Source of the DNA: Planctomycetota bacterium
GTDB lineage: Bacteria > Planctomycetota > SZUA-567 > H5-PLA8
Direction: 5' to 3'
Assembly: GCA_045863855.1 (NCBI GenBank)
Contig: BTVV01000007.1
Location: 1 to 64,000, forward strand
DNA length: 64,000 nucleotides
The translations under genes and the position numbers were made by a program. Position 1 is the stretch's first letter. Each line of letters opens with the position of its first letter. Below are positions 18,928 to 38,984 of this stretch, piece by piece. Under the pieces are notes generated by a model that was not told the origin of the DNA, did no database searches, and saw only the letters and a list, made by a program, of their open reading frames with translations.

Positions 18928-19890
18928 GTGCTCATCGATAAGAGCCATCGTAGTTGGATTACGTTCACGGTCGTCGCTTTCGTCGTGGCCGCCGCTTACT
19001 ACACGTTCTACAGCCAGGCCGCTTACCGCGGCGGGGGTAACGGTCCGTCCGGCGGAAGCTGGTCGGGGCTGACCTTCGGCATCATCGGGTACGCGATGAT
19101 GATCTTCTGCGGCTTGCTGGGGGTGCGTAAGCATTTCCGGATCTGGCGGCTGGGGCGTGTGCAAGGGTGGCTGCGGGCGCATATCTGGCTGGGCTTGCTG
19201 GCCTATCCGCTGATCCTCTTCCACGCCGGATTGAAGTTCGGAAACGGCGTTAGCTTCTGGCTGATGGTGCTCTTCACGATCGTCCTCGTCAGCGGCATCT
19301 TCGGGATTGTCATGCAAAATCTGGTCCCACGCACGATGCTGGACCGGCTGCCGGCGGAGAGCACGTTCGAGCAGATTCCGCAGGTGATCGAAACGCTTCG
19401 GCGCGAAGCCGACCGGTTGGTGGGGAACTTCTGCGGGCCGCTGGGCGTGGAAACGGCGGAACCCGAGGAAGCGGACCGTATGCCGGGCGGCATGTCCGGA
19501 ACGGTGCGCACGCAAGGCGCCGTGAAAGGCCGCGTGGCGCATGCCCGTGGCGGCGGGTCGGGCGGACCGGTGGAAGGCAGCGGGCCGCTCAAGGCGTTTT
19601 ACCTGGAAGTGATCCGCCCGTTCCTGGGCCGCGAGTACTCCGAAGAAACGAAGCTGGCGATTCCGCAAAGCAGCATGGCGCTCTTCGAGCACACGCGCAC
19701 GCTGCTGCCGGCGGCGCTGCACGAGCCGTTGCGCGACCTGGAATCGATCTGCGAAGAACGGCGCCAGTTGAAACTCCAGGAACGCTTGCATTTCTGGCTG
19801 CACTGCTGGCTCTTCCTGCACGCGCCGCTCTCGTACGCTCTGCTGGTGCTTTCGGCGTTCCATGCCGTGAAGGCGACGTTCTACTACTAA
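18928..19890 (+). CDS. Polytopic inner-membrane protein, probable di-heme b (ferric-reductase-like TM domain)
   Basis: About 5 TM segments; two helices each carry a His pair 14 residues apart (HIWLGLLAYPLILFH; HAPLSYALLVLSAFH); GTG start. Confidence 0.6.
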   Translation: MLIDKSHRSWITFTVVAFVVAAAYYTFYSQAAYRGGGNGPSGGSWSGLTFGIIGYAMMIFCGLLGVRKHFRIWRLGRVQGWLRAHIWLGLLAYPLILFHAGLKFGNGVSFWLMVLFTIVLVSGIFGIVMQNLVPRTMLDRLPAESTFEQIPQVIETLRREADRLVGNFCGPLGVETAEPEEADRMPGGMSGTVRTQGAVKGRVAHARGGGSGGPVEGSGPLKAFYLEVIRPFLGREYSEETKLAIPQSSMALFEHTRTLLPAALHEPLRDLESICEERRQLKLQERLHFWLHCWLFLHAPLSYALLVLSAFHAVKATFYY

Positions 19891-19935
19891 GCGGTGGCAG
19901 CTTTGCGCGCAGGACCATGAATCCCGAGGTGAGGC

Positions 19936-21702
19936 ATGTCCCGAGACGTAACCGCCGATAAGCTGACGACGCAGCAGAAGGCCCGCGCGCAGCGAGTGGA
20001 CCGCAGCTACCACGCGCGTCCGCATCCGTGGCGCAGCATGTACAAGACGCTCAACTGGCTGTTCTTCCTGGCCGCCGGTTTGGGCATGGCGGCGTTGCTC
20101 TATACCAAAACCGGGGACAACGTGTACTTGCCCGGACCGGTGAGCAGCAAGCACGCGATTTTCGGGCATCGCTGCATCGAATGCCACGAAAGCGGTCCTA
20201 ACGGCTGGGGCAAGGTGACCGACGCGAAGTGTCTGAGCTGCCATGACGGTCCGGCGCACCATCTCAACATGGTCCACCCCGGCGGGCACACGATGACCGT
20301 GATGCGCGGCGGCAAACCCGTGCAGGTCCAGACGGCCACCTGCGCGAGCTGCCACGTCGAGCACAAGGGTCATGCCGAACTTGCCGCCACGGCCGACCGC
20401 CATTGCACGCAGTGCCACGAAAACCTGCAAGTCTCCGATGGCGGAGCGAAGTTCTTCGCCAAGGTGACCGACTTCGGGACGCTCGACGGGCACCCCGAAT
20501 TCCGCATGTTCACCGATAAGGAAAAGGACACGACGCCGCTGAAGTACAACCACAAAGCGCATATGGAAGTGAAGTGGTCGGACGACCAGATCAAGCAGCG
20601 CATGGGCCTGGAAGCGGGCTTCAAGAAGGTGGCCGGCGCGACGCTGGATTGCTTCGACTGCCACGCACCCGACGCTCAGCGCGCCTACATGGCGCCGGTG
20701 AACTTCGAGATGCACTGCCAGATGTGCCACCCGCTGCAGCTCGCGCCGATCGCGAACATTGGCGACGTGCCGCTGCCGCACGCGCAGTCCGACCTCGTCG
20801 CAGCCAAGGTTGGCGCGGCCTTCAAGGATTACCTGATCAAATCCGGCGGGAAGCTGCCCCCCAAGAAGGTCAAGAATCCCAAGTACAAGAAACCGCGCCC
20901 GGGCCAGAAGCCCACGGAGCCCGAGTTCATCGAGTCGCCGGACGACCGCCCCGTCGAGGAATGGCTCAACGAAAACGTGAAGGCCACGCTGGAACCGATG
21001 TTCAAGGACGGCGGCACGTGCGCCTACTGCCATGAAGTGAACGGGAAGGTGCCGGGCACCGACCTGCCGCTGTACGTCGATCCGCAGGTGCCGCGAAGCT
21101 GGTTCCCGCGCAACCCGGCGCATGCCAAGTCGCCCAAGAGTGTCTTCTTCGACCACGAGAGCCACCGTGTGCTGAAATGCACCGAATGCCACGTGCAAGC
21201 GGCGCAGAGCACCACGACGGCGGACATCCTGATCCCCAGCCGCGATAAGTGCCTCAAGTGCCACTCGCCGCAGGGCGGGGCGCGTTCGGGCTGCGTGGAA
21301 TGCCACCTGTACCACGATAAGTCCTTCTCGAACTTCATCGGCATGCGCACGATCCTGGAACTGGAACAAGGGACGGATATGGGCGGCGTCCCGGCGGGCA
21401 AGATCGTCTCGCGCGACGTAGGCGGCGGCGATGCGCCCGAGCCGGCGGCCAAGACCGAAGCCAAGACCGAAGAAGCGCCGGCGGCCAAAACCGAAGCCGC
21501 CAAGACGGAAGCGGCTCCCGCAGCTAAAACCGAGGCCGTCAAGACCGAAGCTGCCAAGACCGAAGCGCCAGCCGCTGCACCGGCCAAGACCGAAGGCGTT
21601 GGCGTGCAGGCGGGCAATTCGATTCTTTGTCCCAACTGCAGCCTGCGTTGGCCGGGCAAGACGAAGTTCTGCTCGCGCTGCGGGACGCAGTTACAGCAGT
21701 AA
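19936..21702 (+). CDS. Membrane-anchored decaheme c-type cytochrome with a KTE-repeat linker and C-terminal zinc-ribbon-like motif
   Basis: 10 CxxCH (CIECH, CLSCH, CASCH, CTQCH, CFDCH, CQMCH, CAYCH, CTECH, CLKCH, CVECH); N-terminal TM helix; tail CPNC...CSRCG. Confidence 0.9.
   Translation: MSRDVTADKLTTQQKARAQRVDRSYHARPHPWRSMYKTLNWLFFLAAGLGMAALLYTKTGDNVYLPGPVSSKHAIFGHRCIECHESGPNGWGKVTDAKCLSCHDGPAHHLNMVHPGGHTMTVMRGGKPVQVQTATCASCHVEHKGHAELAATADRHCTQCHENLQVSDGGAKFFAKVTDFGTLDGHPEFRMFTDKEKDTTPLKYNHKAHMEVKWSDDQIKQRMGLEAGFKKVAGATLDCFDCHAPDAQRAYMAPVNFEMHCQMCHPLQLAPIANIGDVPLPHAQSDLVAAKVGAAFKDYLIKSGGKLPPKKVKNPKYKKPRPGQKPTEPEFIESPDDRPVEEWLNENVKATLEPMFKDGGTCAYCHEVNGKVPGTDLPLYVDPQVPRSWFPRNPAHAKSPKSVFFDHESHRVLKCTECHVQAAQSTTTADILIPSRDKCLKCHSPQGGARSGCVECHLYHDKSFSNFIGMRTILELEQGTDMGGVPAGKIVSRDVGGGDAPEPAAKTEAKTEEAPAAKTEAAKTEAAPAAKTEAVKTEAAKTEAPAAAPAKTEGVGVQAGNSILCPNCSLRWPGKTKFCSRCGTQLQQ
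21448..21594 (+). repeat. Low-complexity (A)KTE peptide repeats, 8 copies
   Basis: Recurrent gccaagaccgaa-like units encoding AKTE/KTE. Confidence 0.8.
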
Positions 21703-21797
21703 CCGGAACTGAATAAGCCTCCGGTCGTGGCGTCGAGCCCTTCAGGGGGCCGGCGAGAGCCGGTTCGAGTGCGACCTTTTTTGGAGCGTCCGAGGCC

Positions 21798-23498
21798 ATG
21801 GCGATTCGTGCACGGGTAAAGTGGGCTACCATCGGTGCAGTCGTGCTGCTGGGGGCGCTGCTGGCTGCCTTCAGCGACTGGACCGGCTTGGAAAGCGAAG
21901 TCCTGGCCGATCCGCAGGGAATCAAATACACCGGAGCGGGCGCGTGCAGCGCGGCGGCCTGCCACGGTTCGGCGACGCCCAAGGAGGGCGGCGCCACTCG
22001 GCACAATGAAAACCACGTCTGGGCAAACAACGACAAGCACTCCAAGGCCTATACCTCGCTCTCCAACGACGTTTCCAAAGAGCTGGCCAAGAAGCTGAAT
22101 ATCCCAGACGCGACCAAGAGCGAGAAGTGCATCGACTGCCATGCGCTGTCCGGTTTGCATCTGGCCAACGGGGCCAAGCGCATCGTGCTCAAGCCTGAAG
22201 ATATTCAGGCTAAGGGGTACAGCATCGAGGACGGCGTGAGCTGCGACAGTTGCCACGGCCCGGCGGACAAGTACCTCAAGGCGCACACCGAAAAGGGCTG
22301 GACCGATAAGCTGCGCAAAGAGTTGGGCGCCCAGAAGCTCTACGACGAATGGGGGCTGTACGACACGAAGAACATGAAGTTCCGCGCCAACCAGTGCATC
22401 TCCTGCCACTTGCAGATCAGCTCCGAACTGATTCAGGCCGGCCACCCCGAGCTTCCCTTCGAGCTGCACGTTTTCAGTTCGGACGAAGGCTGGATCCACT
22501 GGCGCGACAAGACGCCGTGGTCGGGGACCAAGGCGTGGGCGATGGGCCAGACGGTCGCGCTGCGCGAGGCGGCGTATCAGCTTGCCGGACGCATGGAGCA
22601 GAAGGCGCGCGAAGACCTGGTCGTGGACAGCTACTACCAGTTGGCGGCGCACGCGTTGATGGCCCGTCACGTCGCGGCGGCGGTCGATAAGGCCAAGCTC
22701 GACGAACTGGACAAGCAGCTCAAGGCGGCGCACGACGGCTGGGCCGATCCGGCCAAGGCCGCCGCGGCCCTGAAGGAAATGGCCAAAGCCGCCGAAGCGC
22801 TGGCGGATGCGGTGGACAAGTTCGCCTTTACCGAAGAGGTGACGACCAAGTGGCGCTCGGGCATCGCCGCCGAAGGCGAAGCCTGCGGCAACGTCGGCTT
22901 CCGTGCCGCCGAGCAGCTTGTTCTTTCGCTTACGTCGCTCTCGATGGTCCTGGACAAGGAAGGCAAGGGCGACGCCGACGCGCGGCAGGCGACGATGGAC
23001 AAGCTCTACGAAGTGCTTGCCACGCGCGAGGACTTCGACAAGAAGAAGTTCATCCCGGTCGCCAAGACGCTGGGCGACACCTTCAAGGGCGGTACGGCGA
23101 TTCCGATGCCTCCGGGCGGCCCCGGCGCCGGCGCGGCCTCCGCTCCGGCCGTGGCCGAAGCCAAGACGCCCGAATCGCCGCCCGCGGCCAAGACCGAGGC
23201 GCCCAAGGTCGAAGCGAAGACCGAGGCTCCGGCCGCGCCTCCGGAAGCCAAGACCGAAGCTCCGAAGGTCGAAGCGAAGACCGAAGCCCCCGCGGCCACG
23301 CCGCCCAAGGTTGAGTCCACGCCGCCGCCCACTCAGGAAGATCCGTCCAAGCGCACGCCGTTGACCAAGGAAGAGTGGGGCAAGTTCGTCTTCTGCCCCG
23401 AATGCGGCGTGAAGTGGCCGAAGGACTACAAGTACTGCGTCCGTTGCGGGCACGGTCTGCCGGACATCGAGAAGATCATGAAGGAAGCCGGCAAGTAA
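21798..23498 (+). CDS. Exported multiheme cytochrome c (c554-like N-terminal domain; 3 CxxCH + 1 CX4CH) with a helical domain, AKTE linker and zinc-ribbon-like tail
   Basis: YTGAGACSAAACHG, CIDCH, EDGVSCDSCHGP, CISCH; N-terminal signal/TM; tail CPEC...CVRCG. Confidence 0.85.
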   Translation: MAIRARVKWATIGAVVLLGALLAAFSDWTGLESEVLADPQGIKYTGAGACSAAACHGSATPKEGGATRHNENHVWANNDKHSKAYTSLSNDVSKELAKKLNIPDATKSEKCIDCHALSGLHLANGAKRIVLKPEDIQAKGYSIEDGVSCDSCHGPADKYLKAHTEKGWTDKLRKELGAQKLYDEWGLYDTKNMKFRANQCISCHLQISSELIQAGHPELPFELHVFSSDEGWIHWRDKTPWSGTKAWAMGQTVALREAAYQLAGRMEQKAREDLVVDSYYQLAAHALMARHVAAAVDKAKLDELDKQLKAAHDGWADPAKAAAALKEMAKAAEALADAVDKFAFTEEVTTKWRSGIAAEGEACGNVGFRAAEQLVLSLTSLSMVLDKEGKGDADARQATMDKLYEVLATREDFDKKKFIPVAKTLGDTFKGGTAIPMPPGGPGAGAASAPAVAEAKTPESPPAAKTEAPKVEAKTEAPAAPPEAKTEAPKVEAKTEAPAATPPKVESTPPPTQEDPSKRTPLTKEEWGKFVFCPECGVKWPKDYKYCVRCGHGLPDIEKIMKEAGK

Positions 23499-23523
23499 GA
23501 CCTCCGCCAGATCATCCTTCCGG

Positions 23524-23552
23524 AAAAGCCCCGCCTGCGTGCGGGGCTTTTT
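23524..23552 (+). terminator. Rho-independent terminator
   Basis: AAAAGCCCCGC-ctgcgt-GCGGGGCTTTTT just after the stop at 23498. Confidence 0.85.
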
Positions 23553-23665
23553 CATGGGCGCGGTTCGGACGGCCCGGACCGCGCCGGGCGGAAACCTGAG
23601 AATTGCGGGCGCGGTCCCGAAGATAGGGCGGCCGCTAAACCGAAGGACGCGAGAAGCGAGGGCGC

Positions 23666-23779
23666 ATGTCCAGCGATCGATTCGCCGAACTGCTGCGCGC
23701 CGCGCACCGGATCCTCGTCTTTACCGGCGCGGATATCTCTACCGGCAGCGGAATCCCGGACTTCCAAGGATATACCTAG
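23666..23779 (+). pseudogene. cobB: Orphaned original 5' end of the sirtuin gene
   Basis: Translates MSSDRFAELLRAAHRILVFTGADISTGSGIPDFQGYT*; GAGGG RBS; host-like GC-rich codons; Sir2 GAG motif changed to GAD. Confidence 0.85.
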
Positions 23780-23808
23780 ACGTGATTGCGCCAATTGCGG
23801 CATATAGG

Positions 23809-24123
23809 CTATCTTTCAAGCATCCCGGTACGCAGTACTTCGCCTGTCGTACAATCGATAATTATGATGGCATTACAACCCATGACCTTTGTATTCGTAC
23901 GAACATGCCATGTTCGAAGGGTCCTTTGCATTTGCATGTCATTGAACGGAAGGTCGTTCCTCATGCATGCCTCAGTTGCAATCCTTACGACTACTTCCTC
24001 CGTTAGTGCGGAAGGAAAGAACGTCCTGAAGAAGACCTGCCTTAGAAAGTCCAAGGCAAATAACCCAACGAAACAAAGAACGATAAAAATTATTGATTTA
24101 ATAACAACTGATATCATCAACAT
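23809..24123 (-). CDS. Small membrane-anchored PepSY-like/immunity-like protein
   Basis: GGAGG RBS; N-terminal TM helix; LTEEVVVRIA...WHVRTN...IIIDCTTGEVL; low GC. Confidence 0.6.
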   Translation of the reverse strand: MLMISVVIKSIIFIVLCFVGLFALDFLRQVFFRTFFPSALTEEVVVRIATEACMRNDLPFNDMQMQRTLRTWHVRTNTKVMGCNAIIIIDCTTGEVLRTGMLER

Positions 24124-24192
24124 TAGGCCTCCATGTAATGGGAAGATCTTGACGCAAACCGTTTGGACGTCAGGATTCGCCCACTCTTACCC

Positions 24193-24924
24193 TTACGAAT
24201 TATCAGTGTGCTCAGGATCAGCTAGTTTCTGCAAATGGCGAATAGTGGGCTTCGGAAGTTCAAGATAATCCGGTTTGTAGATATGATACGGGCTTTGGAG
24301 AATTCGACGGTCAATCTTTACCGACCTATTTCGCGCTACGGATCGAGATTCATAGTAGTTGGCAAGACGTCGCTGGAATGAGGATACTGTAATGTCCTTG
24401 ATCTGTGGCGGTGGTGAAATCACTTCACCCGTTGTATCGTCTACCAAATAATAAAAGCCAACAGCACATTCGACCATTGTGACCTGGTCGTACTTAGAGA
24501 GTCTGATGGAATGCGACCAAGGGTAGCCATTCTTTCTTGAAAACAAATAGGCACACATGACAGCGGAATAGCGGGTTCCAACATTTACGTCTGGATTGTA
24601 TTCTCCTGGATATTTAAGAAGGATCCCAGCATAGATGTCGATGCGGGCACCCCAACCGGGACTGGGAACTAAAGGTGAGACGACGTAATTCCAAGCCTGC
24701 AATTCTTCGTCCCGAAAGGATAAACAATCTCCCAGATTAATATGCTTATACCTATCTCGGAAAATTTCTTCTGCCTTGCGGATCGATATCTGAGGGTCAG
24801 GTAATTTATATGCTTTCCTTGCATTGCGAATCACGATAACCCAGAATTTTTTCCATAAATAGAAAATGACCCAGACTAAACATGCCGGTGAAAGGAAAAT
24901 AAAGCAGATCAAAAGGATATCCAT
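24193..24924 (-). CDS. Membrane-anchored hypothetical protein with two PepSY-like units
   Basis: N-terminal TM helix (MDILLICFIFLSPACLVWVIFYLW); ISIRKAEEI...RIDIYAGILL and NGYPW...LVDDTTGEVI; low GC. Confidence 0.55.
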   Translation of the reverse strand: MDILLICFIFLSPACLVWVIFYLWKKFWVIVIRNARKAYKLPDPQISIRKAEEIFRDRYKHINLGDCLSFRDEELQAWNYVVSPLVPSPGWGARIDIYAGILLKYPGEYNPDVNVGTRYSAVMCAYLFSRKNGYPWSHSIRLSKYDQVTMVECAVGFYYLVDDTTGEVISPPPQIKDITVSSFQRRLANYYESRSVARNRSVKIDRRILQSPYHIYKPDYLELPKPTIRHLQKLADPEHTDNS

Positions 24925-25675
24925 GACAAATACGGCCCTTGTCCATTTGATGCAAACTTGCAACCACCTCCTAGTTTTTACTGGAGCAGGGGTATCGACG
25001 GGTAGTGGAATCCCGGACTTCCGCGGCCCGCAGGGCGTTTGGAAGACGTTCCAGCCGGTCTACTATCAGGACTTCATGACCGACCACGCCGCCCGGGTGG
25101 AGTACTGGAGCCAGAAGCTGCACGCCTTCGAAGCCTTTTCGAAGGCGCGTCCCAATGCGGCGCACCGCGCCGTCGCCGAACTGCACGCGGCGGGCAAGCT
25201 CGAGCGCTGCGTCACCCAGAACATCGATGGCTTGCACCAGGCCGCGGGATTGCCGCGTGAAGCGCTGGTCGAAGTCCACGGCACGGCCACCGAGGTCGAA
25301 TGCCAGACCTGCAAAGCGCGCAGCGCGCCGGCCCCTCACTTCGAAGCCTTCGCGCGCACGCGCACGCCGCCCGTCTGCGCCTGCGGCGGGTGGCTCAAGT
25401 CGGCAACGGTCAGCTTTGGGCAAGCCTTGCGCGAGGAAGACCTATTGAACGCGTACGAGGCGGCTCAGCGCTGCGATCTGTGCGTGGCGCTGGGCAGCAC
25501 CTTATCGGTCCATCCGGCCGCCAGCATTCCGCTGGCCACGGCCAAGCGTGGCGTGCCTTACGTCATCGTCAACCAGGGCCCGACCGACCAGGACGGCGAA
25601 GCGTGCGTGACCCTGCGGCTGGAAGGCGACGTGGGAACGATCTGGCCAGAGGCGGTTCGGCAAGCGCTTGAGTAA
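24923..25675 (+). CDS. cobB: NAD-dependent protein deacylase (Sir2 family) with an AT-rich replacement N-terminus
   Basis: VFTGAGVSTGSGIPDFRGPQGVW, PNAAH, TQNIDGLH, EVHG, Zn-binding CxxC...CxC, GSTLSVHPA, IVN; AAGGA upstream of ATG 24923. Confidence 0.9.
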   Translation: MTNTALVHLMQTCNHLLVFTGAGVSTGSGIPDFRGPQGVWKTFQPVYYQDFMTDHAARVEYWSQKLHAFEAFSKARPNAAHRAVAELHAAGKLERCVTQNIDGLHQAAGLPREALVEVHGTATEVECQTCKARSAPAPHFEAFARTRTPPVCACGGWLKSATVSFGQALREEDLLNAYEAAQRCDLCVALGSTLSVHPAASIPLATAKRGVPYVIVNQGPTDQDGEACVTLRLEGDVGTIWPEAVRQALE

Positions 25676-25784
25676 AGCCTGTTTCCAGTTTTGAGTTTCC
25701 ATTTGGCGGCCAACGGCAACGCGGGCGGAACCCATCCGCTTGCGAAGCCCTTGCCGTTACCTGGCAAAAACTGGGAATCGACCC

Positions 25785-27839: not shown

Positions 27840-27840
27840 C

Positions 27841-29838: not shown

Positions 29839-30006
29839 GCCGGTTCCCAATTCGAGCTGCTCAGCAGCTTATGCGTAAACTGTCCTAAAGAGACGCGCCG
29901 TAGCGGCCTCGTCCATCAATGAATCCCCAGGCAACAAGCCGATTTCCGGTGCATCCTTAGGCGGCAGTATGGTACTCCAAACCCTTTTCAAAGCACAGGA
30001 AATGCC

Positions 30007-30042
30007 AGACGGCAGCGGGCCTTGCGGACCACGCTGCCGTCT
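30007..30042 (-). terminator. Hairpin downstream of the heme-binding protein gene, possible terminator
   Basis: AGACGGCAGCG...CGCTGCCGTCT 11-bp stem; weak U-tract. Confidence 0.4.
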
Positions 30043-30071
30043 TGAAAGGCAGGTGCAGGAATAGGGTAGAC

Positions 30072-32270
30072 TTAGCGCCCCGCACTCCTGGGCAGCTTGA
30101 TGTAAGGCAAATTAAGCTGTTGGAGAATATTCCCGGAGAGGATACGGGCTTCGAGCACGTCCAGAACCCCGTCACCCTGGCCCAAGTTGGGGAACTCGTC
30201 GCGCAGCTTGGCCACGGCGTTGAGCAACGCGGCCTGAATCGCCGGCGGACTGGCTTCGTCGCAGAGCACGCCCGGACCCGGCCGGAAGCCGAGCGAGCCG
30301 CCAAAGGCCGCCGCGTCGTCCTGGTCCACGCCGTCGCCGGAGATGCCCAAGCCGCCGACCAGCACGGTCTGGCCCGTATTGGGATTCACCTTATACAGCG
30401 GCACGCCGCCCGGGAAGATGGTGATCCCGTTCGGCACCGTCGTGGGCACCGCGCCCACGCCGCGTGAATCGAGCGTCAAAGCGACCGTCATGCACAACTG
30501 GAGCGGGCTAAGGCGCCCGTCGCGGATGTGAACCATGCGCCGGGAGAGGATCTGAACGGCATCGTTGAGATCGGCAGGTGCAAAACCCACGGCTTCGTCG
30601 TTGAGCAGATGGCTGATTTCCTTGAGCAGACCGCTGCCCTGGGTCAAATCACCCGAAACGCCGTCGGCATCCAGCGTGGCCGGATCGATACCCGGTTTGG
30701 GCCCCAACAGTCCACTGAGCGGACCAGGAGCCTGTCGCCCCAACCCCGGCGGGTACATCACCTGACTCATGAAGCCAATGCCACGCGACGAGAACCCAAC
30801 TTGGTCGGTGCTGAAGAAGGCCGCTGTGCGGGCCTTCTGGATCGAGACGTCGAAGGAGAAGACCGTCGCGTCCTCGGTGCGGAATCCGCCCAGGACGTTG
30901 CCAGCCAAGTCCACCACCGAGATGAAGATGCGCATCGGCTGCCCGATGGGCCGGCGAATCGCGGCGCGGGTGCGTTGAGCGACCGCAGCGGCTTGCGCGA
31001 CAATGAGGTTCACATCGGCGATGGTCAGGCCGCCGTCCGCCGTGGCAGGTGTCGTGCTGTCCACCGGCAGGTAACGCGGCACCCAGCCTTGGCGCGGGAA
31101 TTCCTGTTCCGGCGTATCGCGCGTGGCGCCGCCGCCGCCCAAAACCTCGGTGATCGCGCCGACCGGCACCATCGTGCCGTCGGGATCGCGTTCGCCGCCG
31201 TCCGTATCGAGGTAATCTTCCAGAGTGCCGAAGGTACCCACGCCGGCCATCAGGACTGCGTCGATATCGGCTTGGCTCACACGCACGCCAGCGCCCGCAC
31301 GGAACGCGTACGGGAAGCGGAATCCGTTGACCAGAATTCTTGTGGCCACCACGCCGCCGGCAGGCTTGAACGGTACCTGCGCGAAGAAGGCGGTCGCTTC
31401 TTCCAGCGCTCGACGCGAACCGCCCGGAGCCAGACGATTGACGCCTTCGTCGATGATTCCGGGGGAAAGGTCGGTGCCGTAGTCGGCCAGCGTTCCGAAG
31501 CCGTCGATCTCTACGCCCACGCCGCCCACGCCACGGCGATGCGGCCTGATGACGCCCAACCGGCCTTTGGGCAGACCGCCCAGCTTGAAGAGCGGCAAGC
31601 CGCCCAAGTCGTCCGTCACCGGCGTAATGACCAGCGACTGGCTGTTATCCAGCGGACGCGAATCGTTGATGCCGTCCGGATCGGGGCCGACGTTGACGCC
31701 GTTGACGAAGACAATGAAGCGCGGAACCTGAAGCTGTCCGTCGAATCCACCGGTATACGAATTCAGAGCAGCGCCCTTGGGGAACGAAGAGAACGGCACG
31801 CCGTAAAGCGGGCCGCCTTCCAAGTTGCCGAAGCCCGGCGGGAAATGCTCCTGAACAATGAAGCCCGCCGTGAGAGTAGAAAATGCGTTGAAATCGGACT
31901 GGAAGAAACCGCCTGTGCGAGCCTTTTGAATGGCCTGCTCGCTGATGCGAATATCAGGCGCCCCGCCGCTGGGGGTCATGCGCAACACGCCCAGCACATG
32001 GCCCTCGCGATCCGTGACCGCGATAATGCCGGACTCGGCGATACGCGGGTTGGTCAACAACGCCACGGCACGCGCGAGGATCAAATCGACATCGGTTGAG
32101 AGCAGCGCCGGATCAGGCTGAGGCGCCAAGCCTCCATTGGCAATGTCATTGACGATCGTTACAGGTGGGGTCTGAGCGAAAACGGATGTGGCAATCCCTA
32201 ATGCAGCCCAAACGGCAACTGTGAACCCCACGCGCTTATAAGAGGTAGCGCGTCCCGGCTTGAAGGACAT
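30072..32270 (-). CDS. Exported protein with two GlcG/HbpS-like (heme-binding) domains
   Basis: Two copies of AV.DxxGxxL...IQKART and GGLPL/GGVPL...GGVGV/GGLGISGDGVDQDD; signal peptide ending VFA-Q; AAGGAG RBS. Confidence 0.75.
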   Translation of the reverse strand: MSFKPGRATSYKRVGFTVAVWAALGIATSVFAQTPPVTIVNDIANGGLAPQPDPALLSTDVDLILARAVALLTNPRIAESGIIAVTDREGHVLGVLRMTPSGGAPDIRISEQAIQKARTGGFFQSDFNAFSTLTAGFIVQEHFPPGFGNLEGGPLYGVPFSSFPKGAALNSYTGGFDGQLQVPRFIVFVNGVNVGPDPDGINDSRPLDNSQSLVITPVTDDLGGLPLFKLGGLPKGRLGVIRPHRRGVGGVGVEIDGFGTLADYGTDLSPGIIDEGVNRLAPGGSRRALEEATAFFAQVPFKPAGGVVATRILVNGFRFPYAFRAGAGVRVSQADIDAVLMAGVGTFGTLEDYLDTDGGERDPDGTMVPVGAITEVLGGGGATRDTPEQEFPRQGWVPRYLPVDSTTPATADGGLTIADVNLIVAQAAAVAQRTRAAIRRPIGQPMRIFISVVDLAGNVLGGFRTEDATVFSFDVSIQKARTAAFFSTDQVGFSSRGIGFMSQVMYPPGLGRQAPGPLSGLLGPKPGIDPATLDADGVSGDLTQGSGLLKEISHLLNDEAVGFAPADLNDAVQILSRRMVHIRDGRLSPLQLCMTVALTLDSRGVGAVPTTVPNGITIFPGGVPLYKVNPNTGQTVLVGGLGISGDGVDQDDAAAFGGSLGFRPGPGVLCDEASPPAIQAALLNAVAKLRDEFPNLGQGDGVLDVLEARILSGNILQQLNLPYIKLPRSAGR

Positions 32271-32502
32271 GGTAAAACTCCTTGTATCCCGCAGTGGGAA
32301 TGGCCCCGCGCAAACAGCTTCAAAGTTGATGACTGGACCATAGCACAAGCGCATGTGCAGGCAACCCAAAAACGCTATTTTCCGTTGCCCTCGTGCTTGA
32401 ACTATGGTAAACGAATGCCTCGTTACCAGACTGTGAACTTTTGCGCCTGAAATATGGCCTTCGGGCTGGACCCACTAGCCTTGGGGGGCGGTTCGTAAAC
32501 TC

Positions 32503-34566
32503 ATGTACCTTGCACGTGTGAAAAACCCACTCGGACTCATCATAACCTCTTGGGTACTGCTGCTGGCGACGGTCGCTGGCTTCGGTACTCAGCGGTGCTG
32601 CGCCGGCGAAGCCGAAGCGAAGCCCGAAACGGAAGAAGAGCGCTACAAGCGCTTTCGCGAAGGCGAAAAGCCTGCGGAAGGGCAGGCGCCCAAGCCGGCC
32701 GAAGGGACTCCTGCGGCCCCCGCGACTCCTGCGGCCCCCGCGACTCCTGCGGCCGAAGCGAAGCCCGCCGAAGGCACGGCGACTCCCGCGGCTGAGGCCA
32801 AGCCCACCGAGACGGCTGCGGCCGCCGAAGGCGAGCAACCCTCTAAGGGAGCAGCCAAGCGCGAGGACCCGGACGAGCCGGAACTCGTGGACCTCTACCA
32901 CGACGCCGAGAAGAAGGACGAACCGACCAACGGACGCTTAGGCGGAGAATTGGGCCGCGCGGCGTGGAAAAAGAATAAAGTTCCGCGTTGGGCGATCGAC
33001 CAGGAGCCGCTGCTGCCGGTGGGCAACCGCTGGGGCATCGGCTTCCCGCACAGCCCCCGCCACGTCACCAATAACGCTTGGCACAATCCTTACCGCCAAA
33101 ACGTGCTGAAGGGCGACTACCCGATCCTGGGCCAAGACAAGTTCCTGGTCATCAACGCCGGCTCGGACACCACGGCCGAATTCCGCGAGATTCCGACGCC
33201 CTCGGGCAACGCGCCCTTCCGTCCGGGCAGCTTCGATTTCTTCGGTTCGCCGGAGGCCACCTTCGTCCAGCAGAACTTCTTCCTTTCGATCGAGTTCTTC
33301 GGCGGGGAGACGTCCTTCAAGCCGCGCGCGTGGGAAGCCCGCGTGACGCCGGTCTTTAACGTCAACTACATCAATACCGACGAACGCTTGGCGGTGAACA
33401 TCGATACCCGCGAAGGCCGCGACCGCCTGGACCACCAGATCGCGTTCCAGGAACTGTTCGGCGAGTACCATTTCGTGGACATCAGCCCGAATTACGACTT
33501 CATCGCCGGCCGCGCGGGCATTCAGTTCTACAACCACGACTTCCGCGGCTTCCTCTTTGCCGACAACCAGCTCGGCGCGCGCCTCTTCGGCACTTACGAG
33601 AGCAACCGGCTGCAGTACAACTTCACCTACTGGGAAATGCTGAATAAAGACACGAACTCGGGTCTCAACACGCTCTTCCAGATGAAGGACGAGCATGTGT
33701 TCCTGGCGAATCTGATCCGGCAGGACACGTTCGTGAAGGGCTACAACATCATCGGACAGTTGGGTTTGAGCATCGAAGAAGCGAGCGTAGAGTTTAACCA
33801 GAACGGCGTGCCGGTTCGCCCGACTCCGATCGGAAGCGGACAGCCGCACTCCAATAAGGTGGGCTACGTTGGCTTCGGAGGCAACGGCCACGTTGGGCGC
33901 TTCAACCTTTCGCATCAGTATTATCTGGCCTACGGCGAGGACACGCTGAATCCGATCGCCGGCAAGCAGACGGACATCCTGGCTCATATGTTCGCGGCCG
34001 AACTGTCCTACGACTGGGACTGGATGCGCTTCCGCACGAGCTACTTCTACTCCAGCGGGGACGAAGATCCGGAAGACGACAAAGCCGAAGGTTTCGATTC
34101 GATTTTCGATAACCCCGAGTTCGCGGGCGGGCAGTTCAGCTACTGGGTGCGCCAAGGCTTCGGCGCGGGCAACACCTTCACGCTGCTGAAGAGCCGCAAC
34201 TCGTTGATTCCGAACCTGAGCGCCGGAAAAGAAGAAGGCCAGGCCAATTTCGTCAACCCCGGTATTCACCTGTTCAACATCGGCTACGACGCCGAACTGA
34301 CGCCCAGCTTGCGCGCGGTGGCGAACATCAACTACCTGAAGTTCGCGGACACCACCTCGCTGGAATTCCTGCTGGGCCAGGACGCGATCAGCAAGGAGAT
34401 CGGCGTGGACTACAGCTTGGGCTTGATCTACCGCCCGCTGCTGAACCAGCAGATCATCCTGACCGGGGGCGTCGCGGCGCTGCAACCCTTCGACGGATAC
34501 AAGAAGATTTACGAAACCAGCGGCGTTCAGCTCTCGGGGTTCATGAACGTCATCGTCAAGTACTAG
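32503..34566 (+). CDS. Outer-membrane beta-barrel (porin-like) protein
   Basis: Signal peptide; Pro/Ala-rich linker; many amphipathic strands rich in aromatics and Gly; C-terminal strand GFMNVIVKY ends in an aromatic residue. Confidence 0.7.
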   Translation: MYLARVKNPLGLIITSWVLLLATVAGFGTQRCCAGEAEAKPETEEERYKRFREGEKPAEGQAPKPAEGTPAAPATPAAPATPAAEAKPAEGTATPAAEAKPTETAAAAEGEQPSKGAAKREDPDEPELVDLYHDAEKKDEPTNGRLGGELGRAAWKKNKVPRWAIDQEPLLPVGNRWGIGFPHSPRHVTNNAWHNPYRQNVLKGDYPILGQDKFLVINAGSDTTAEFREIPTPSGNAPFRPGSFDFFGSPEATFVQQNFFLSIEFFGGETSFKPRAWEARVTPVFNVNYINTDERLAVNIDTREGRDRLDHQIAFQELFGEYHFVDISPNYDFIAGRAGIQFYNHDFRGFLFADNQLGARLFGTYESNRLQYNFTYWEMLNKDTNSGLNTLFQMKDEHVFLANLIRQDTFVKGYNIIGQLGLSIEEASVEFNQNGVPVRPTPIGSGQPHSNKVGYVGFGGNGHVGRFNLSHQYYLAYGEDTLNPIAGKQTDILAHMFAAELSYDWDWMRFRTSYFYSSGDEDPEDDKAEGFDSIFDNPEFAGGQFSYWVRQGFGAGNTFTLLKSRNSLIPNLSAGKEEGQANFVNPGIHLFNIGYDAELTPSLRAVANINYLKFADTTSLEFLLGQDAISKEIGVDYSLGLIYRPLLNQQIILTGGVAALQPFDGYKKIYETSGVQLSGFMNVIVKY
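32706..32754 (+). repeat. 18-bp tandem repeat (2.7 copies) encoding TPAAPA
   Basis: GACTCCTGCGGCCCCCGC x2.7. Confidence 0.9.
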
Positions 34567-34613
34567 CCGGATTTTCGATTTAGGCCCTCGCTACGAAACA
34601 CGGAACGAGACTC

Positions 34614-37600
34614 ATGGGACGGATGCGCAAACTTTCCTGGTTGGGCGGCTCGCTGCTTCTGGCGGCGTTGGCCTTGGGCACGGGTTGTGACCACCCGGCC
34701 GACTTGTACTACGATAAGGGTTCGGACTTCCCGCCCGAACCCCGGATGAGTTCGATTCCGGCCACGCAGACCGACGAAGAAGTGATGAAAAAGTCGGCCG
34801 GCTGCATGAGCTGCCACCAAGGCATCGAAAATCCGAGCATGCATGCGTCCGAAGCGGTGAAGATCGGATGCGTGGACTGTCACGGCGGCAATGCGCAGGC
34901 GACGAGCAAAGAAGAAGCCCACGTCCAAGCTCGCGGACCCTGGTATCACATCGGCCACCACGGCCTTGTAGGTCCCAAGCACGACGACCACGGCGCGGCT
35001 CACGACGATCACGCCAAGACGGCCGAAGTACACGGCGATCATGCCAAGTCTGGCGAAGCGCACGGCGAACATGCCAAGACCGAAGACACCCACGGTGCCC
35101 ACGGTGCCCACGGCGGCCACGGTTCGCATGGCGCGCACGGCGGAGCGCATCCCAGCGCTTGGCCGAAGCGCACCGGCGCGGTCTGGATGAAGGAAGATCC
35201 GGCCTTCATTCGATTCATCAATCCCGGTGACCTGCGCGTGGCCAAGTTTACCTGCGGCGAGTGCCATCCGGGTTACTTCGAGCGCGTTAGCACCAGCATG
35301 ATGGCGCACGGCGGCATGCTCTGGAACGCCGCGTTGTACAACAACGGTGCGAGCAACCAGAAGTGGGGCCGCTACGGCGAAGCGTACATGTGGGACGGCA
35401 AGCCGGCCCGCCTTCAGTCGCTCAAGCAGAACAAGGATTCGGGCAAGTGGGAAGTCTTCCGCCCGACCGTCGATGACATCAAGAACCGCGGTATCCTGCC
35501 TTACTTGGATCCGCTGCCTCGCTACAACATCACGCAGTCGGGCAACATTCTGCGCGCGTTCGAGCGCGGCGGCCGCGTGCTGCTCGAAACGGCCCAACCC
35601 ATCGGGCAGATCACTCCGGGTAAGGTCGAGATCGACGAGAGCGGCAAGCCGGAATTGAAGCTCTCGATCCGCGGTTTCGGCACCTTGCTGAGCACCGACC
35701 CGGTCTTCCTGGGCCTGCAGAAGACCCGGTTGCTGGATCCGATCCTGTGGCACCCCGGCTCGAACGATCAAGCCGGCGATTACCGCAGTTCGGGCTGCAG
35801 TTCCTGCCACGTCATGTACGCCAACGACCGCGATCCGACGCACAGCGGTCCGTTCGCCAAATACGGCAAGCACGGCCACTCCTTCAGCAAGGACGCCACG
35901 CTGGCGCATGTTGCGGGCAAGGAAAACGAGAAAGGCGAGGTCGTCGAAAAGGGCAAATCGAGCGGGCACCCGATCAAGCACGTCTTTACGCGCTCGATTC
36001 CATCCAGTCAGTGCGTAGTCTGCCACATGCACCCCGGCACGACGGTGACGGTCACCTACTACGGCAACACTTGGTACGACAACGAAACCGAAGGCAGCAA
36101 GACGTACTTGGACAGCCACCTGCCGAACATGTCGGAACGAGAAGAGCTGAAGATCAAGTACCGCAATCCGGAAGCCGCGGCGCTGCGCGGGCGGTGGGGC
36201 GACGTGGAGTGGATGGAGTCGGTTTGGGAGCGCAACGACCAGTTCAAGCAGATCCAGTTCGCCGACTACCACGGACACGGCTGGCTCTACAAGAACGTTT
36301 ATAAGATGGACCGCAAGGGCAACTTGCTGGACAAGGACGGCAAGCAGGTCGCTCACGATTCCCCCGATAAGTTCAAGAAGGGCGCAAAGGGCGAACCGCT
36401 CGCGGGATCGGCCGTACATATGCAGGACATCCACCTCGAGAAGGGGATGCACTGCATCGACTGTCACTTCAACATCGATAACCACGGCAACGGCTTGCTG
36501 TACTCCGAAGTCCGCAATGCGACGGAAATCACCTGCGCGGACTGCCACGGCACGATCTACAAGCGCGCGACGCTGAAGACGACCGGTAACGCGGCCCCCG
36601 AAGGCGGCACGGACTTGGCGGCGAGCAACACGCCGTTCGGGAAGCGCTTCCGTGTGCTTGGCGGGAAGCTGATGCAGCAGTCGGCCGTCGACGCCAACGT
36701 GAAGTGGGAGGTACCTCAGGTGATCGACACGATCACCCCGGGCAATCCGCACTACAACGAGAAGGCGCGTTTGGCCAAGACGATGCGCAAAGACAACAAG
36801 ACTTGGGGCGATGTGCCGGAGGATGCGAGCGTCCTGGCGCATAAATCCGAGAAGATGGACTGCTACACCTGCCACACGTCGTGGATGGCGTCCTGCTTCG
36901 GCTGTCACTTGCCGATGCGCGCCAACCAAAACCGCGACAACAACCACTACGAAGGCGCGCACAGCCGCAACTGGACCCAGTACAACTGGCAGACGCTGCG
37001 CGGCGATGTCTTCATGCTGGGCCTGGACGGCACGGTTAAGGGCAACAAGGTCGCGCCGGTCCGCTCGGCCTGCGCCGTAATCGTCGGTTCGCAGAACGCC
37101 CAGCGCGAATGGATTTACAGCCAGCAGCAGACGGTCAGCGCCGAGGGCTTCAGCGGCCAGGCGTTCAGCCCGCACTATCCGCACGCGGTGCGCGGGGCCG
37201 GCGAAACCAAGATGTGCGTCGACTGCCACGTCAGCAAGGCCGGCGACAACAATGCCTGGATGTCCCAGGTCCTGATGCTGGGCACGAACACCACCAACTT
37301 CATGTATCGCTACGTCTATGTGGCCTGCGACGACGGCGGCACGCACGCGGTAGTGGTGACGGAGCAGGACGAACCGCAGGCGGTGATCGGCAGCACGCTG
37401 CACCGTGACGCGTTCCGCGAGCGCTACGCCGAGCACCTGGAGCGCGGCATGTCGCTGGAACACGAATACGGCAAGTACGGCACGGTAAAGCAACTTCAAC
37501 TCCGCGGCGAGTACCTCTACGCGGCGCGAGGTAGCGGCGGCGTGACGATCTACGACGTTGCGAACATCGACAACAAGGGCTTCAGCCAGCGCATCAGCAC

Positions 37601-38984
37601 CGCGCCGGTCAGCCCGCTGGGCCAGCGCTTGTACGTGAAGTCGAAGGACTGCACGCAGGTGATCAGTCCGACGGTGCTGGGTGTCGATCCGACGCGCCAA
37701 GTTCCGTTCATGCCCCGCGATCCGTTGAACCAGGAACAGGGCATCCACCCGATTTACGCATTCCTGTACTGCCTGGACCGCGAGGAAGGGCTCTTCACGA
37801 TCAACGCCGCGACGCTGCTGGACGGCGATCCGACGAACAACTTCCTCGAACGCCACCTGACCTTCAATCCCAACGGGGTGCTCACGGGCTCCACGCACGG
37901 GATCGTGGCCGGAACGAATCTGTGGGTCTGCAGCGATGCGGGCCTGGTCTGCGTGGACATCAGCAAGATCGGCACCGAGCTGGTAGAAGCGGCGCTGAAG
38001 ATGAATCCGGACGGCAAGAAGACGCTAGAAATCAAGAAGGTCGTGGAGGAGGCGCGCGCGCCAAATCCGGACGAACTGAAGGTGCTGAGCGTGGTGCCGC
38101 TGAACAAGCCGCGCGCGGTACGCATCCAGTTCCGCTACGCGTTCGTGCTAGACGCCGACGGCCTGAAGGTGATCGACATCACGCACCCCGATAAGCCGCG
38201 GTTGGTCGAGGGCGCGACGGTGCCGTTCCAGAACGCGCACAGCCTGTACCTGGCGCGCACGTACGCCTACGTGGCGGCGGGCGCGGAGGGTCTGGCGATC
38301 GTGGACATCGAGCACGCCGAATCGCCGAAGCTCTTCACCAAGTTCACGGGCGATGGCTGGCTGAACGACGTTCGCGACGTGAAGCTGGGCATGACCAATA
38401 CGTCCTCTTTCGCCTACTTGGCCAACGGCAAGCGCGGGCTGGCGGTGGTGCAGCTCACCTCGCCCGAAACGGTGCCCAACTTCGAAGGCTGGTCGCCGGA
38501 GCCGAAGCCTTTCCTGATCGCCAAGAAGGACCTACCGGGCGTAGCGTTGAACATCAGCGAAGGCCTCCAGCGCGACCGTGCGGTGGACGAGAGCGGCAAC
38601 CAGCTCAGCGTCTTCAACCGCGTCGGCTCGCGACCGTTCAACAAGAAGGAAATGGAAGCGATGTACATGCTTGACGGCCAGCTCTTCTCCGTCACCAACG
38701 AGCCGCCGGGCGAGCCGCTGGAACTGAAGGCCGCGGGTGGCGGTACGGCCGAACTGGAAGCCAAGCTGCAAGAGTTGAAGGGTGAACTGGAGAAGGAAAA
38801 GAATCCGATCAAGAAGCGTAAGATCCAGAAGGACATCGAGGATCTGGAGAAGAAGATCAAGGAAGCCAGCGCTGGCGCCAACGCCGAGAAGATCAAGGAG
38901 TTGGAAGCGGCCTTGGCAAACGAGAAGAACCCGATCAAGAAGCGCAAGATCGAGCAGGATCTGAAGAAGCTGAAGGGCGAGTAA
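34614..38984 (+). CDS. Large decaheme c-type cytochrome lipoprotein with an LVIVD-like beta-propeller
   Basis: Lipobox-like LALGTG-C; 10 CxxCH (CMSCH, CVDCH, CGECH, CSSCH, CVVCH, CIDCH, CADCH, CYTCH, CFGCH, CVDCH); repeats YAFV..GLKVIDI, YAYVA..GLAIVDI, YLAN..GLAVVQL; His-rich insert. Confidence 0.9.
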   Translation: MGRMRKLSWLGGSLLLAALALGTGCDHPADLYYDKGSDFPPEPRMSSIPATQTDEEVMKKSAGCMSCHQGIENPSMHASEAVKIGCVDCHGGNAQATSKEEAHVQARGPWYHIGHHGLVGPKHDDHGAAHDDHAKTAEVHGDHAKSGEAHGEHAKTEDTHGAHGAHGGHGSHGAHGGAHPSAWPKRTGAVWMKEDPAFIRFINPGDLRVAKFTCGECHPGYFERVSTSMMAHGGMLWNAALYNNGASNQKWGRYGEAYMWDGKPARLQSLKQNKDSGKWEVFRPTVDDIKNRGILPYLDPLPRYNITQSGNILRAFERGGRVLLETAQPIGQITPGKVEIDESGKPELKLSIRGFGTLLSTDPVFLGLQKTRLLDPILWHPGSNDQAGDYRSSGCSSCHVMYANDRDPTHSGPFAKYGKHGHSFSKDATLAHVAGKENEKGEVVEKGKSSGHPIKHVFTRSIPSSQCVVCHMHPGTTVTVTYYGNTWYDNETEGSKTYLDSHLPNMSEREELKIKYRNPEAAALRGRWGDVEWMESVWERNDQFKQIQFADYHGHGWLYKNVYKMDRKGNLLDKDGKQVAHDSPDKFKKGAKGEPLAGSAVHMQDIHLEKGMHCIDCHFNIDNHGNGLLYSEVRNATEITCADCHGTIYKRATLKTTGNAAPEGGTDLAASNTPFGKRFRVLGGKLMQQSAVDANVKWEVPQVIDTITPGNPHYNEKARLAKTMRKDNKTWGDVPEDASVLAHKSEKMDCYTCHTSWMASCFGCHLPMRANQNRDNNHYEGAHSRNWTQYNWQTLRGDVFMLGLDGTVKGNKVAPVRSACAVIVGSQNAQREWIYSQQQTVSAEGFSGQAFSPHYPHAVRGAGETKMCVDCHVSKAGDNNAWMSQVLMLGTNTTNFMYRYVYVACDDGGTHAVVVTEQDEPQAVIGSTLHRDAFRERYAEHLERGMSLEHEYGKYGTVKQLQLRGEYLYAARGSGGVTIYDVANIDNKGFSQRISTAPVSPLGQRLYVKSKDCTQVISPTVLGVDPTRQVPFMPRDPLNQEQGIHPIYAFLYCLDREEGLFTINAATLLDGDPTNNFLERHLTFNPNGVLTGSTHGIVAGTNLWVCSDAGLVCVDISKIGTELVEAALKMNPDGKKTLEIKKVVEEARAPNPDELKVLSVVPLNKPRAVRIQFRYAFVLDADGLKVIDITHPDKPRLVEGATVPFQNAHSLYLARTYAYVAAGAEGLAIVDIEHAESPKLFTKFTGDGWLNDVRDVKLGMTNTSSFAYLANGKRGLAVVQLTSPETVPNFEGWSPEPKPFLIAKKDLPGVALNISEGLQRDRAVDESGNQLSVFNRVGSRPFNKKEMEAMYMLDGQLFSVTNEPPGEPLELKAAGGGTAELEAKLQELKGELEKEKNPIKKRKIQKDIEDLEKKIKEASAGANAEKIKELEAALANEKNPIKKRKIEQDLKKLKGE

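Follow-up and report, generated by a model that had tools for sequence, protein, structure and literature searches.

A candidate envelope-spanning multihaem redox system in a Planctomycetota genome, with an inner module related to PCC4/Ptd clusters and a different outer module

Do multihaem cytochrome genes that stand beside the gene of an outer-membrane barrel encode a wire to extracellular acceptors, or another kind of redox machine? This question is raised by a locus at positions 18,928 to 38,984 of a 64,000-nucleotide stretch of DNA (the window) of a Planctomycetota bacterium (GenBank assembly GCA_045863855.1, contig BTVV01000007.1, here C7). The contig is part of a 6.9-Mb genome, 93.9% complete, and the top matches of the barrel are labelled Planctomycetota. 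A first-pass annotation had proposed a self-contained porin-cytochrome conduit with dedicated haem maturation. The analysis supports an envelope-spanning redox machine in this genome. The system is real, widespread and uncharacterized, and it is partly in print already. Added here are a common chassis with exchanged outer modules, a likely input from NAD(P)H with a cyclic-nucleotide (cNMP)-binding protein, and a predicted haem-free docking of a decahaem cytochrome on the periplasmic face of the barrel. No functional study was found in a literature search that left subscription journals mostly outside.

Gene Content of the Locus

All seven open reading frames (ORFs), as well as the resB and ccsA genes, lie where the first-pass annotation had placed them (Table 1), and its count of 24 c-type haem motifs was confirmed: ten CxxCH in the anchored decahaem cytochrome, three CxxCH and one CX4CH in the tetrahaem cytochrome, and ten CxxCH in the decahaem-propeller protein. 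Shuffling each protein 2000 times gave a mean of 0.007–0.045 motifs and a maximum of 2, so that 24 far exceeds chance.

The genes had been described as one unit. They are arranged in three blocks: the membrane protein, the decahaem and the tetrahaem cytochromes (plus strand), then ccsA, resB and the DUF336 gene (minus strand), then the barrel and the decahaem-propeller protein (plus strand). A gap of 1367 nt between the first two blocks holds a sirtuin gene and a 44%-GC insertion, and in a genome of the same genus (G001) the first block lies ~138 kb away from the barrel. The scan for promoters and terminators performed no better than chance (3 found vs. 4.0 expected; 7 found vs. 21.7 expected).

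Table 1. Features of the locus, candidate partner genes elsewhere in the genome and one feature outside the system. Positions refer to the window unless a contig is named.
Feature	Position	Strand	Remarks
Inner-membrane di-haem-b protein, homolog of PCC4 inner-membrane protein/PtdF, ferric-reductase-like	18928..19890	+	WX3HX13H at 81 and 294; SGIFG
Anchored periplasmic decahaem cytochrome, PtdG homolog	19936..21702	+	10 CxxCH; Pfam c7/c3; hydrophobic stretch from residue 39
Exported tetrahaem cytochrome, cytochrome c554 family, PtdD homolog	21798..23498	+	PF13435; c554 1bvb E 1.9e-4
CcsA, system II haem ligase	25785..27881	-	PF01578; TIGR03144 below cut-off; WGRFWGWDPKE motif
ResB	27841..29850	-	PF05140
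Exported tandem DUF336 (GlcG/HbpS-like) protein	30072..32369	-	PF03928, two stretches; 57.4 bits, cut-off 25
18-strand outer-membrane barrel (predicted), AlgE/OprD fold, conserved N-terminal extension	32503..34566	+	model pLDDT 85, pTM 0.83
Decahaem cytochrome with seven-bladed propeller	34614..38984	+	1456 aa; 10 CxxCH
NuoE+F fusion, then NuoG-like/cNMP/2[4Fe-4S] gene (probable partner)	C14:65915-69850 (L081 5916-9851)		NuoEF directly upstream
Second, stand-alone cNMP/2[4Fe-4S] gene (probable partner)	C9:46221-47876 (L082 8222-9877)
Truncated sirtuin start, 44%-GC insertion, intact sirtuin	23667..25675	+	outside the system; insertion 23771-24920

The Outer Module: A Channel-Type Barrel and a Decahaem-Propeller Protein

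The model of the barrel protein, of good local and global confidence (predicted local distance difference test, pLDDT, and predicted template modelling score, pTM, in Table 1), agrees with its earlier assignment as a barrel. It has 18 strands and resembles AlgE most closely (Z 27.7, root-mean-square deviation (rmsd) 2.9 Å over 367 residues, 13% identity; Foldseek E 1.3e-16), followed by OpdQ (Z 26.1) and OccD2 (Z 25.4). By its features, the nearest named family is that of alginate-export clusters, although no Pfam family matched at E 0.01, Alginate_exp (PF13372) and OprD included. While the 18-strand fold is that of the AlgE/OprD (Occ) channels, the barrel differs from them in a conserved N-terminal extension that is predicted to bind the cytochrome. 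The MtrB/PioB family (PF11854) is matched neither by this protein nor anywhere else in the genome. MtrB is also missing from the fold matches listed, which is not used as evidence here, since a family may go unlisted. One Blastocatellia protein (P0109) is a fusion in which a tetrahaem c3 domain precedes the barrel at the N-terminus, and a similar Atlas cluster exists.

In the neighbouring decahaem-propeller protein, each of the ten haem motifs is kept in 58–59 of 59 sequences. A further 12 His, spare ligands for the ten haems, and three Met are conserved, all before residue 873, and the propeller region has no conserved His, Cys or Met in the same set. Any catalytic site is therefore more likely to be found in the haem domain than in the propeller. 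The first-pass annotation had suggested that the propeller could be a catalytic or substrate-binding module of a terminal enzyme; the enzyme-like character of the protein finds support, the propeller as its catalytic module does not. The propeller itself, recognized earlier as an LVIVD-like region, is borne out by the model of a homolog (L045, 51% identical; pTM 0.82), which shows seven blades and a conserved low-confidence segment (183–253). In fold comparison the propeller reaches a Z of 25.1, with an rmsd of 2.1–2.2 Å over ~270 residues.

Fold searches with the whole protein are dominated by such propeller matches, and its Atlas look-alikes are generic multihaem clusters. A sequence search of the PDB gave no match with the single protein and only short ones with a profile (best E 0.001). 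A weak match to ExtM covers residues 603–875 (E 7.9e-23). The protein is 44% identical between Planctomycetota and Sphingobium. It had been called a lipoprotein, and the window's own protein does have a lipoprotein-like Cys. Most homologs lack it: by the lipobox pattern, on which the call is based in place of a signal-peptide predictor, the Cys occurs mainly in the window's family, and the strict form of the pattern fits 4 of 54 homologs and misses the variant of the window.

The association of barrel and cytochrome is supported by modelling. For the homologous pair of L045, the complex scored 0.79 against 0.01 for the best control, the model runs share at least 45% of their contacts and the partner pLDDT is at least 73. 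The 64 confident contacts on the barrel involve the N-terminal extension, the short turns with the strand ends next to them, and, of the loops, numbers 3 and 7; loops 1, 2, 4, 5, 6, 8 and 9 have none. On the cytochrome, the contacts (window residues ~226–227, 247–281, 299–305 and 322–361) include no haem motif, haem 3 (214–218) being close in sequence, and the core of the interface is a segment that is disordered when the cytochrome is modelled alone. The cytochrome is thus predicted to dock on the periplasmic face of the barrel via a haem-free loop (~322–361).

The Inner Module and the Source of Electrons

The inner-membrane protein had been annotated as a di-haem-b protein, in agreement with its two WX3HX13H motifs and with four His (H85, H99, H298 and H312) that are invariant in 29 of 29 sequences. 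A profile built on it recovers authentic Ptd loci. The anchored decahaem cytochrome keeps its ten CxxCH motifs and ten further His in at least 83% of 23 sequences and is likely an all-bis-His wire, with ~38 residues per haem compared to ~81 in the decahaem-propeller protein. In the tetrahaem cytochrome, the first haem motif is the CX4CH, kept in all 16 sequences along with four further conserved His; a 58% identical paralog lies at C61:23377-24810 without the rest of the cluster. At the C-terminus, each of the two exported cytochromes has a repetitive A/K/T/E/P linker and a zinc-ribbon-like tail (CxxC...CxxC), which is odd in the periplasm and is not kept in distant homologs.

The inner module varies among relatives. 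In Pyrinomonadaceae-type loci, the c554-like protein is replaced by a small, unfused tetrahaem along with two cytochromes of nine motifs each, and small tetrahaem genes occur in L003, L005, L010, L011 and others. A third arrangement, in the Planctomycetota loci L181–L193, joins the window-type outer cassette to the membrane protein, a cNMP/Fe-S protein and cytochromes with 15 and 17/18 haems.

A cNMP-binding 2[4Fe-4S] protein is present in 80 of the 83 fetched loci that bear the membrane protein, is fused to it in Pyrinomonadaceae-type loci, and adjoins it in the same-genus G001 and the same-family G003. Its cNMP domains retain the G-E...R-x-A motifs. Three kinds of NAD(P)H module occupy the same position: a TrxB-like protein (fused), NuoEF with a NuoG-like N-terminus, and a protein resembling ferredoxin-NADP+ reductase (FNR). 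Within the fetched stretch, a flavoprotein was found in 21 of 53 window-type loci (nine TrxB-like, eight NuoEF, four FNR) and in 12 of 14 Ptd-type loci. Because of these Fe-S and flavoprotein neighbours, we infer that electrons come from a cytoplasmic Fe-S/flavin protein rather than from quinol oxidation, and cross the membrane in the manner of ferric reductases and NADPH oxidases (NOX). The MtrCAB-like logic with a quinol oxidase, assumed at first, is not what these neighbours, the AlgE/OprD-type channel and the haem-free predicted interface point to.

At the window locus itself, neither a cNMP/Fe-S gene nor a gene for an FAD/NAD(P)-binding protein was found. Two cNMP/Fe-S genes on C14 and C9 (Table 1) are, judged by sequence, probably the cytoplasmic partners of the cluster, and the C14 protein shares 56% identity with the protein linked to the cluster in L074. 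With these partners and the NuoEF-like flavoprotein on other contigs, the description of the locus as self-contained does not stand. The C9 gene follows a transporter-like ORF similar to one flanking the Sphingobium cluster. A flavoprotein disulfide reductase (Pfam Pyr_redox), which we take to resemble the soluble transhydrogenase SthA, recurs close to the clusters L039, L049, L078, L079 and L097 and has a 58% homolog on C156 of the window genome.

Maturation Genes and the DUF336 Protein

CcsA with its WWD motif and ResB identify a system II maturation pathway. This ResB is the only one found in the genome, which encodes further multihaem proteins besides those of the window, and just 2 of the 39 full-length loci have ccsA close to the barrel. 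The pair is therefore likely a general maturation system and not, as had been thought, a dedicated one.

The start of the exported DUF336 protein probably lies ~60 codons further in than called. The protein matches EfgA (6bws, E 2.3e-7), and the small-ligand triad of EfgA (K57/S114/D121) is present in its C-terminal domain as K512/S677/D684, conserved at 93–96% in 56 sequences. The only conserved His in this set is H175. The His near the N-terminus of PduO, which serves there as a haem ligand, aligns to an Ala. In EfgA, the triad binds formaldehyde, according to the available text of PMC8153426.

Conservation and Spread

A search with a barrel alignment yielded 539 confirmed relatives in 600 scanned stretches, of which the best 80 were kept; ~5000 relatives are estimated in the GTDB collection. 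They are mostly from Acidobacteriota, with others from Planctomycetota, Verrucomicrobiota and further groups. Locus counts use the 39 loci of at least 21 kb, 41 shorter ones being left out. Within 10 kb of the barrel, the decahaem-propeller protein is encoded in 38 of these, DUF336 in 33, the Fe-S protein in 25, the membrane protein in 22, the decahaem in 20 and the tetrahaem in 14. Among 301 Planctomycetota genomes, the barrel is found in at least 43 and the membrane protein in 100, and the latter occurs in 43 of 43 barrel-bearing genomes against 57 of the 258 others, counts in which kin are not independent. The co-conservation proposed for these genes is thereby seen in other genomes too. 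When the search was centred on a barrel-bearing genome from a different phylum, the yield was 4 of 151, including a weak one. The conservation alignments include one row from an unpublished genome (L044), on which no claim depends by itself. Two of the relatives, L065 and L077, bear the titles Klebsiella and Akkermansia; the proteins of L065 are very similar to those of L073, and at least this title is probably wrong.

All six genes and the cNMP/Fe-S gene stand together on a replicon of the cultured Sphingobium herbicidovorans MH, which makes the system directly testable. The flanks of this cluster hold two-partner secretion genes of the ShlB/FhaC type and the gene of a 2092-aa exoprotein (L103 2461-10614 and 30074-31753). 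With carriers in Acidobacteriota and Sphingobium, the system is not specific to the Planctomycetota-Verrucomicrobiota-Chlamydiota (PVC) group.

Metatranscriptome contigs of a related strain span the barrel gene with its decahaem neighbour (6.5 kb, X17), the three genes of the first block (4.6 kb, X19) and the C14 genes; X13 and X14 yielded short pieces only. They are not used as support here, as they cover neighbouring genes too and do not show strand, level or freedom from DNA.

Relation to Published Clusters

In the available text of He et al. (2017; PMC5566968), PCC4 consists of a porin, 4-, 5- and 10-haem cytochromes, a membrane protein that bears SGXXG and a pair of WX3HX13H motifs, and genes for Fe-S and further redox proteins, the cNMP-binding Fe-S gene (PtdE) being absent in subgroup I. 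The predicted cluster ptdABCDEFG (10.1101/2023.11.21.568154, available text) has the same gene content. By these descriptions, PCC4 and Ptd are the same predicted, uncharacterized cluster. The window shares with it a homologous di-haem-b membrane protein (SGIFG, two WX3HX13H), a decahaem and a c554-like tetrahaem cytochrome; profiles of the window families score ~94–157 bits on the decahaems and 44–101 bits on all but one of the tetrahaems of pentahaem-type loci. The cNMP-binding 2[4Fe-4S] protein has its two homologs outside the window locus, on C14 and C9. In contrast, the window locus is without the pentahaem PtdA, the porin PtdB and the FNR-type PtdC, and has the decahaem-propeller protein, an unrelated barrel and DUF336 instead.

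The same division is seen among 40 Planctomycetota loci with the membrane protein, which fall mainly into two types that share one inner module. The Ptd type, recognized by the published descriptions and not by accessions, has a 600–680-aa pentahaem, a porin and an FNR-type protein, and L175 shows the full ptdABCDEFG order. The L175 pentahaem matches PDB entry 5ze8 (E 2.2e-10), presumably the structure cited in the Ptd preprint; the decahaem-propeller protein of the window has no 5ze8 match. In a profile-profile sequence comparison, the window barrel and PtdB gave a probability of 0.2% (E 0.27), and no PtdB match exists in the window genome. For the decahaem-propeller protein and PtdA, the profile-profile comparison gave 42% over 32 columns, haem-motif columns only. 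PtdC-type FNR is encoded in 12 of 14 Ptd-type loci against 4 of 53 window-type loci, and not at the window locus. No fetched locus combines both types, while 7 of 301 genomes carry both barrels.

That the locus is Ptd itself is ruled out, as authentic pentahaem loci have a porin and a pentahaem unrelated to it in sequence. Since the inner module is shared but barrels and outer cytochromes are unrelated at the sequence level, the window cluster appears as a sister of PCC4/Ptd with another outer module and not as a member. Of the earlier claim of a distinct conduit or redox machine in a PVC-type bacterium, the distinctness holds for the outer module; the inner half is that of PCC4/Ptd, and the cluster is not PVC-specific. 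What PCC4 and Ptd describe is thus a single inner chassis that occurs with two or more outer modules unrelated to each other.

Similar by description is the 'first group' of clusters in karst metagenome-assembled genomes (2026, PMC13264449, available text): 11 clusters have a 4-5-kb decahaem gene beside a ~20-strand porin, and 7 of these have a gene for ferredoxin-NADP+ reductase close by. The 4.4-kb decahaem gene of the window next to the barrel corresponds to this, and a TrxB-like input module fits. The available section on this group has no mention of a propeller, DUF336, the membrane protein or docking and treats the clusters as extracellular electron transfer (PMC13264449). On description and without sequence comparison, it is probably the same family.

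As a working precedent, the Geobacter ext cluster is the nearest analogue. Its porin ExtI, which is implicated in selenite uptake, is encoded beside the periplasmic multihaem polysulfide reductase ExtKL/MccSep (PMC5877670 and PMC13510729, available texts). Like extHIJKLMNOPQS, the window combines the gene of a channel with neighbouring genes for periplasmic multihaem proteins and for a b-type module in the inner membrane. In sequence, the two are weakly linked: ExtM, ExtN and ExtO score 80.6, 26.3 and 27.3 bits against cut-offs of 800, 200 and 200, and the decahaem-propeller protein has no conserved catalytic Cys. Moreover, ext has a Rieske/cytochrome b module instead of cNMP/Fe-S, and a different porin.

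With MtrCAB/MtoAB/PioAB as well as OmbB-OmaB-OmcB, the window shares the adjacency of barrel and decahaem genes and the predicted association of their products. It is unlike MtrCAB/MtoAB/PioAB in having 18 strands compared to 26 in PioB/MtoB (PMC13741234), and unlike Mtr-type conduits in its predicted haem-free periplasmic interface and its likely cytoplasmic rather than quinol input. A NCBIfam scan named no OmbB, OmaB or OmcB, no direct comparison having been made. PCC3 has extracellular and periplasmic cytochromes of very large haem numbers in the available text of PMC5566968, whereas the maximum of the window is ten per protein. The Verrucomicrobia cluster of porin and multihaem cytochrome (octahaem, at least 20 strands; PMC5615132, available text) and the Tenderiales Uet cluster do not fit, by their descriptions only.

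Proposed Mechanism and Alternative Explanations

To what end would such a machine move electrons? The reading we prefer, to which we give about an even chance, is an NAD(P)H-fed export of electrons to a channel-coupled periplasmic decahaem reductase of a small imported molecule. An NAD(P)H flavoprotein (NuoEF-like on C14, TrxB- or FNR-like in relatives) would feed the cNMP-binding 2[4Fe-4S] protein, possibly under cyclic-nucleotide control. The membrane protein, with its conserved His ligands and putative haems, would carry the electrons over the inner membrane the way ferric reductases and NOX do, and the anchored decahaem and the c554-like tetrahaem could relay them through the periplasm. 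The decahaem-propeller protein, to judge from half of the cytochrome in the homologous pair, is predicted to bind the periplasmic rim of the barrel, its haem-free loop reaching towards in-folded constriction loops. Catalysis would take place at a haem site of this protein, and the DUF336 protein may bind substrate or product. An outward flow from NAD(P)H would be aided by the membrane potential with no energy conserved, and the system would therefore serve to provide reductant or to shed surplus reducing power, not to respire. As substrates, we would guess at soluble Fe(III) chelates or quinones first, then at chalcogen oxyanions or polysulfide. A bolder and doubtful extension sees in the system a cyclic-nucleotide-gated bacterial counterpart of NADPH oxidase, in which the decahaem-propeller protein plugs and gates its own channel and the chassis shared with PCC4/Ptd swaps outer modules.

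Several points weigh against the channel-coupled reductase. A catalytic haem is marked neither by a CxxCK nor by a conserved Cys to spare, and each of the ten haems of the decahaem-propeller protein could be bis-His. The docked complex was modelled without haems on a pair from Acidobacteriota, whose members are 44% and 51% identical to the proteins of the window, and covers residues 8–475 of 1168 of the cytochrome, which places haems 7–10 and the propeller outside it. Of 157 solved pairs, 116 reach the mark used for its score, as do 2 of 215 mismatched ones, a calibration that is only rough for the alignments used. The periplasmic side is assigned from topology and not read from coordinates, the inward folding of barrel loops 3 and 7 is our assumption from AlgE/OprD structures, and 2 of 54 homologs lack the docking loop. 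On the input side, 32 of 53 window-type loci show no flavoprotein within the fetched stretch, the C14 genes are linked to the cluster in the window genome by homology only, and for this family of membrane proteins He et al. (PMC5566968, available text) proposed quinone exchange.

A true porin-cytochrome conduit, whose haems would make contact with minerals, humics or electrodes outside the cell by way of the barrel or above it, is possible but in our view unlikely. The gene content does span the envelope. In 38 of 39 loci the decahaem gene is next to that of the barrel, the two proteins are predicted to bind, and some relatives combine the same outer cassette with the 15- and 17/18-haem wires; half of the cytochrome and the anchored decahaem lay outside the docking model. 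PCC4, Ptd and the 2026 karst clusters are all read as conduits in the available texts. The barrel, however, has the 18-stranded fold of a solute channel and no MtrB/PioB family match exists in the genome, and the cytochrome is predicted to bind on the turn side of the barrel, at an interface free of haem. The tetrahaem fused to P0109 would suit a conduit, yet the fusion is N-terminal and hence also periplasmic by topology; likewise, the lipoprotein-like Cys of the window protein is missing from most homologs.

It is improbable that the chain runs inwards or is linked to quinone, with a soluble reduced substrate (aldehyde-like, Fe(II), Mn(II) or sulfur species) oxidized at the decahaem-propeller protein and electrons passing to quinone or NAD+. 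The likeness of the tetrahaem to c554, which carries electrons away from an oxidase, would suit this, but a coupling or fusion to cytoplasmic Fe-S protein and flavoproteins would be needless for quinone reduction, and NAD+ reduction against the membrane potential would need a donor of very low potential. PCC4 is found in iron oxidizers and was modelled inwards to quinone (PMC5566968, available text). The three formaldehyde-binding residues of EfgA that DUF336 keeps could hint at an aldehyde, although the triad is general to the family (PMC8153426, available text). More remote still is a NOX-like or export-coupled chain that delivers electrons to O2, producing superoxide or peroxide, or to a product leaving via the AlgE-like channel. 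The His pattern is that of ferric reductases and NOX, the top fold match of the barrel is an exporter, and the full set occurs in Sphingobium, which is aerobic. Against this, no polysaccharide-synthesis family stood out among the recurring neighbours (by ORF clustering, with representatives judged by eye), and 24 c-type haems are more than superoxide production requires.

The choice between these readings has wider bearing, as clusters of a barrel and multihaem proteins are routinely counted as extracellular electron transfer in metagenome papers. If the channel-coupled periplasmic enzyme fed by NAD(P)H is true, inferences on iron and humic cycling in soils need revision. If the counterpart of NADPH oxidase is true, the system forms a class apart from porin-cytochrome wires, and many presumed conduits for mineral respiration do other chemistry.

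Neighbouring Features and Other Multihaem Genes

Between the first two blocks (window 23667-24920), the cut-off 5' end of a sirtuin gene is followed by a 1.15-kb insertion of 44% GC with two small minus-strand ORFs, and then by a complete sirtuin gene. The insertion is missing from the same-genus G002 and looks like an integration into the sirtuin gene.

Three other multihaem genes of the genome may be mentioned. A 1395-aa octahaem protein is encoded at C18:19955-24139, close to apparent haem-synthesis genes, and another octahaem at C13:22293-23951, behind an apparent cytochrome b. A pentahaem protein at C145:2144-3550 gives a weak match to the PtdA profile.

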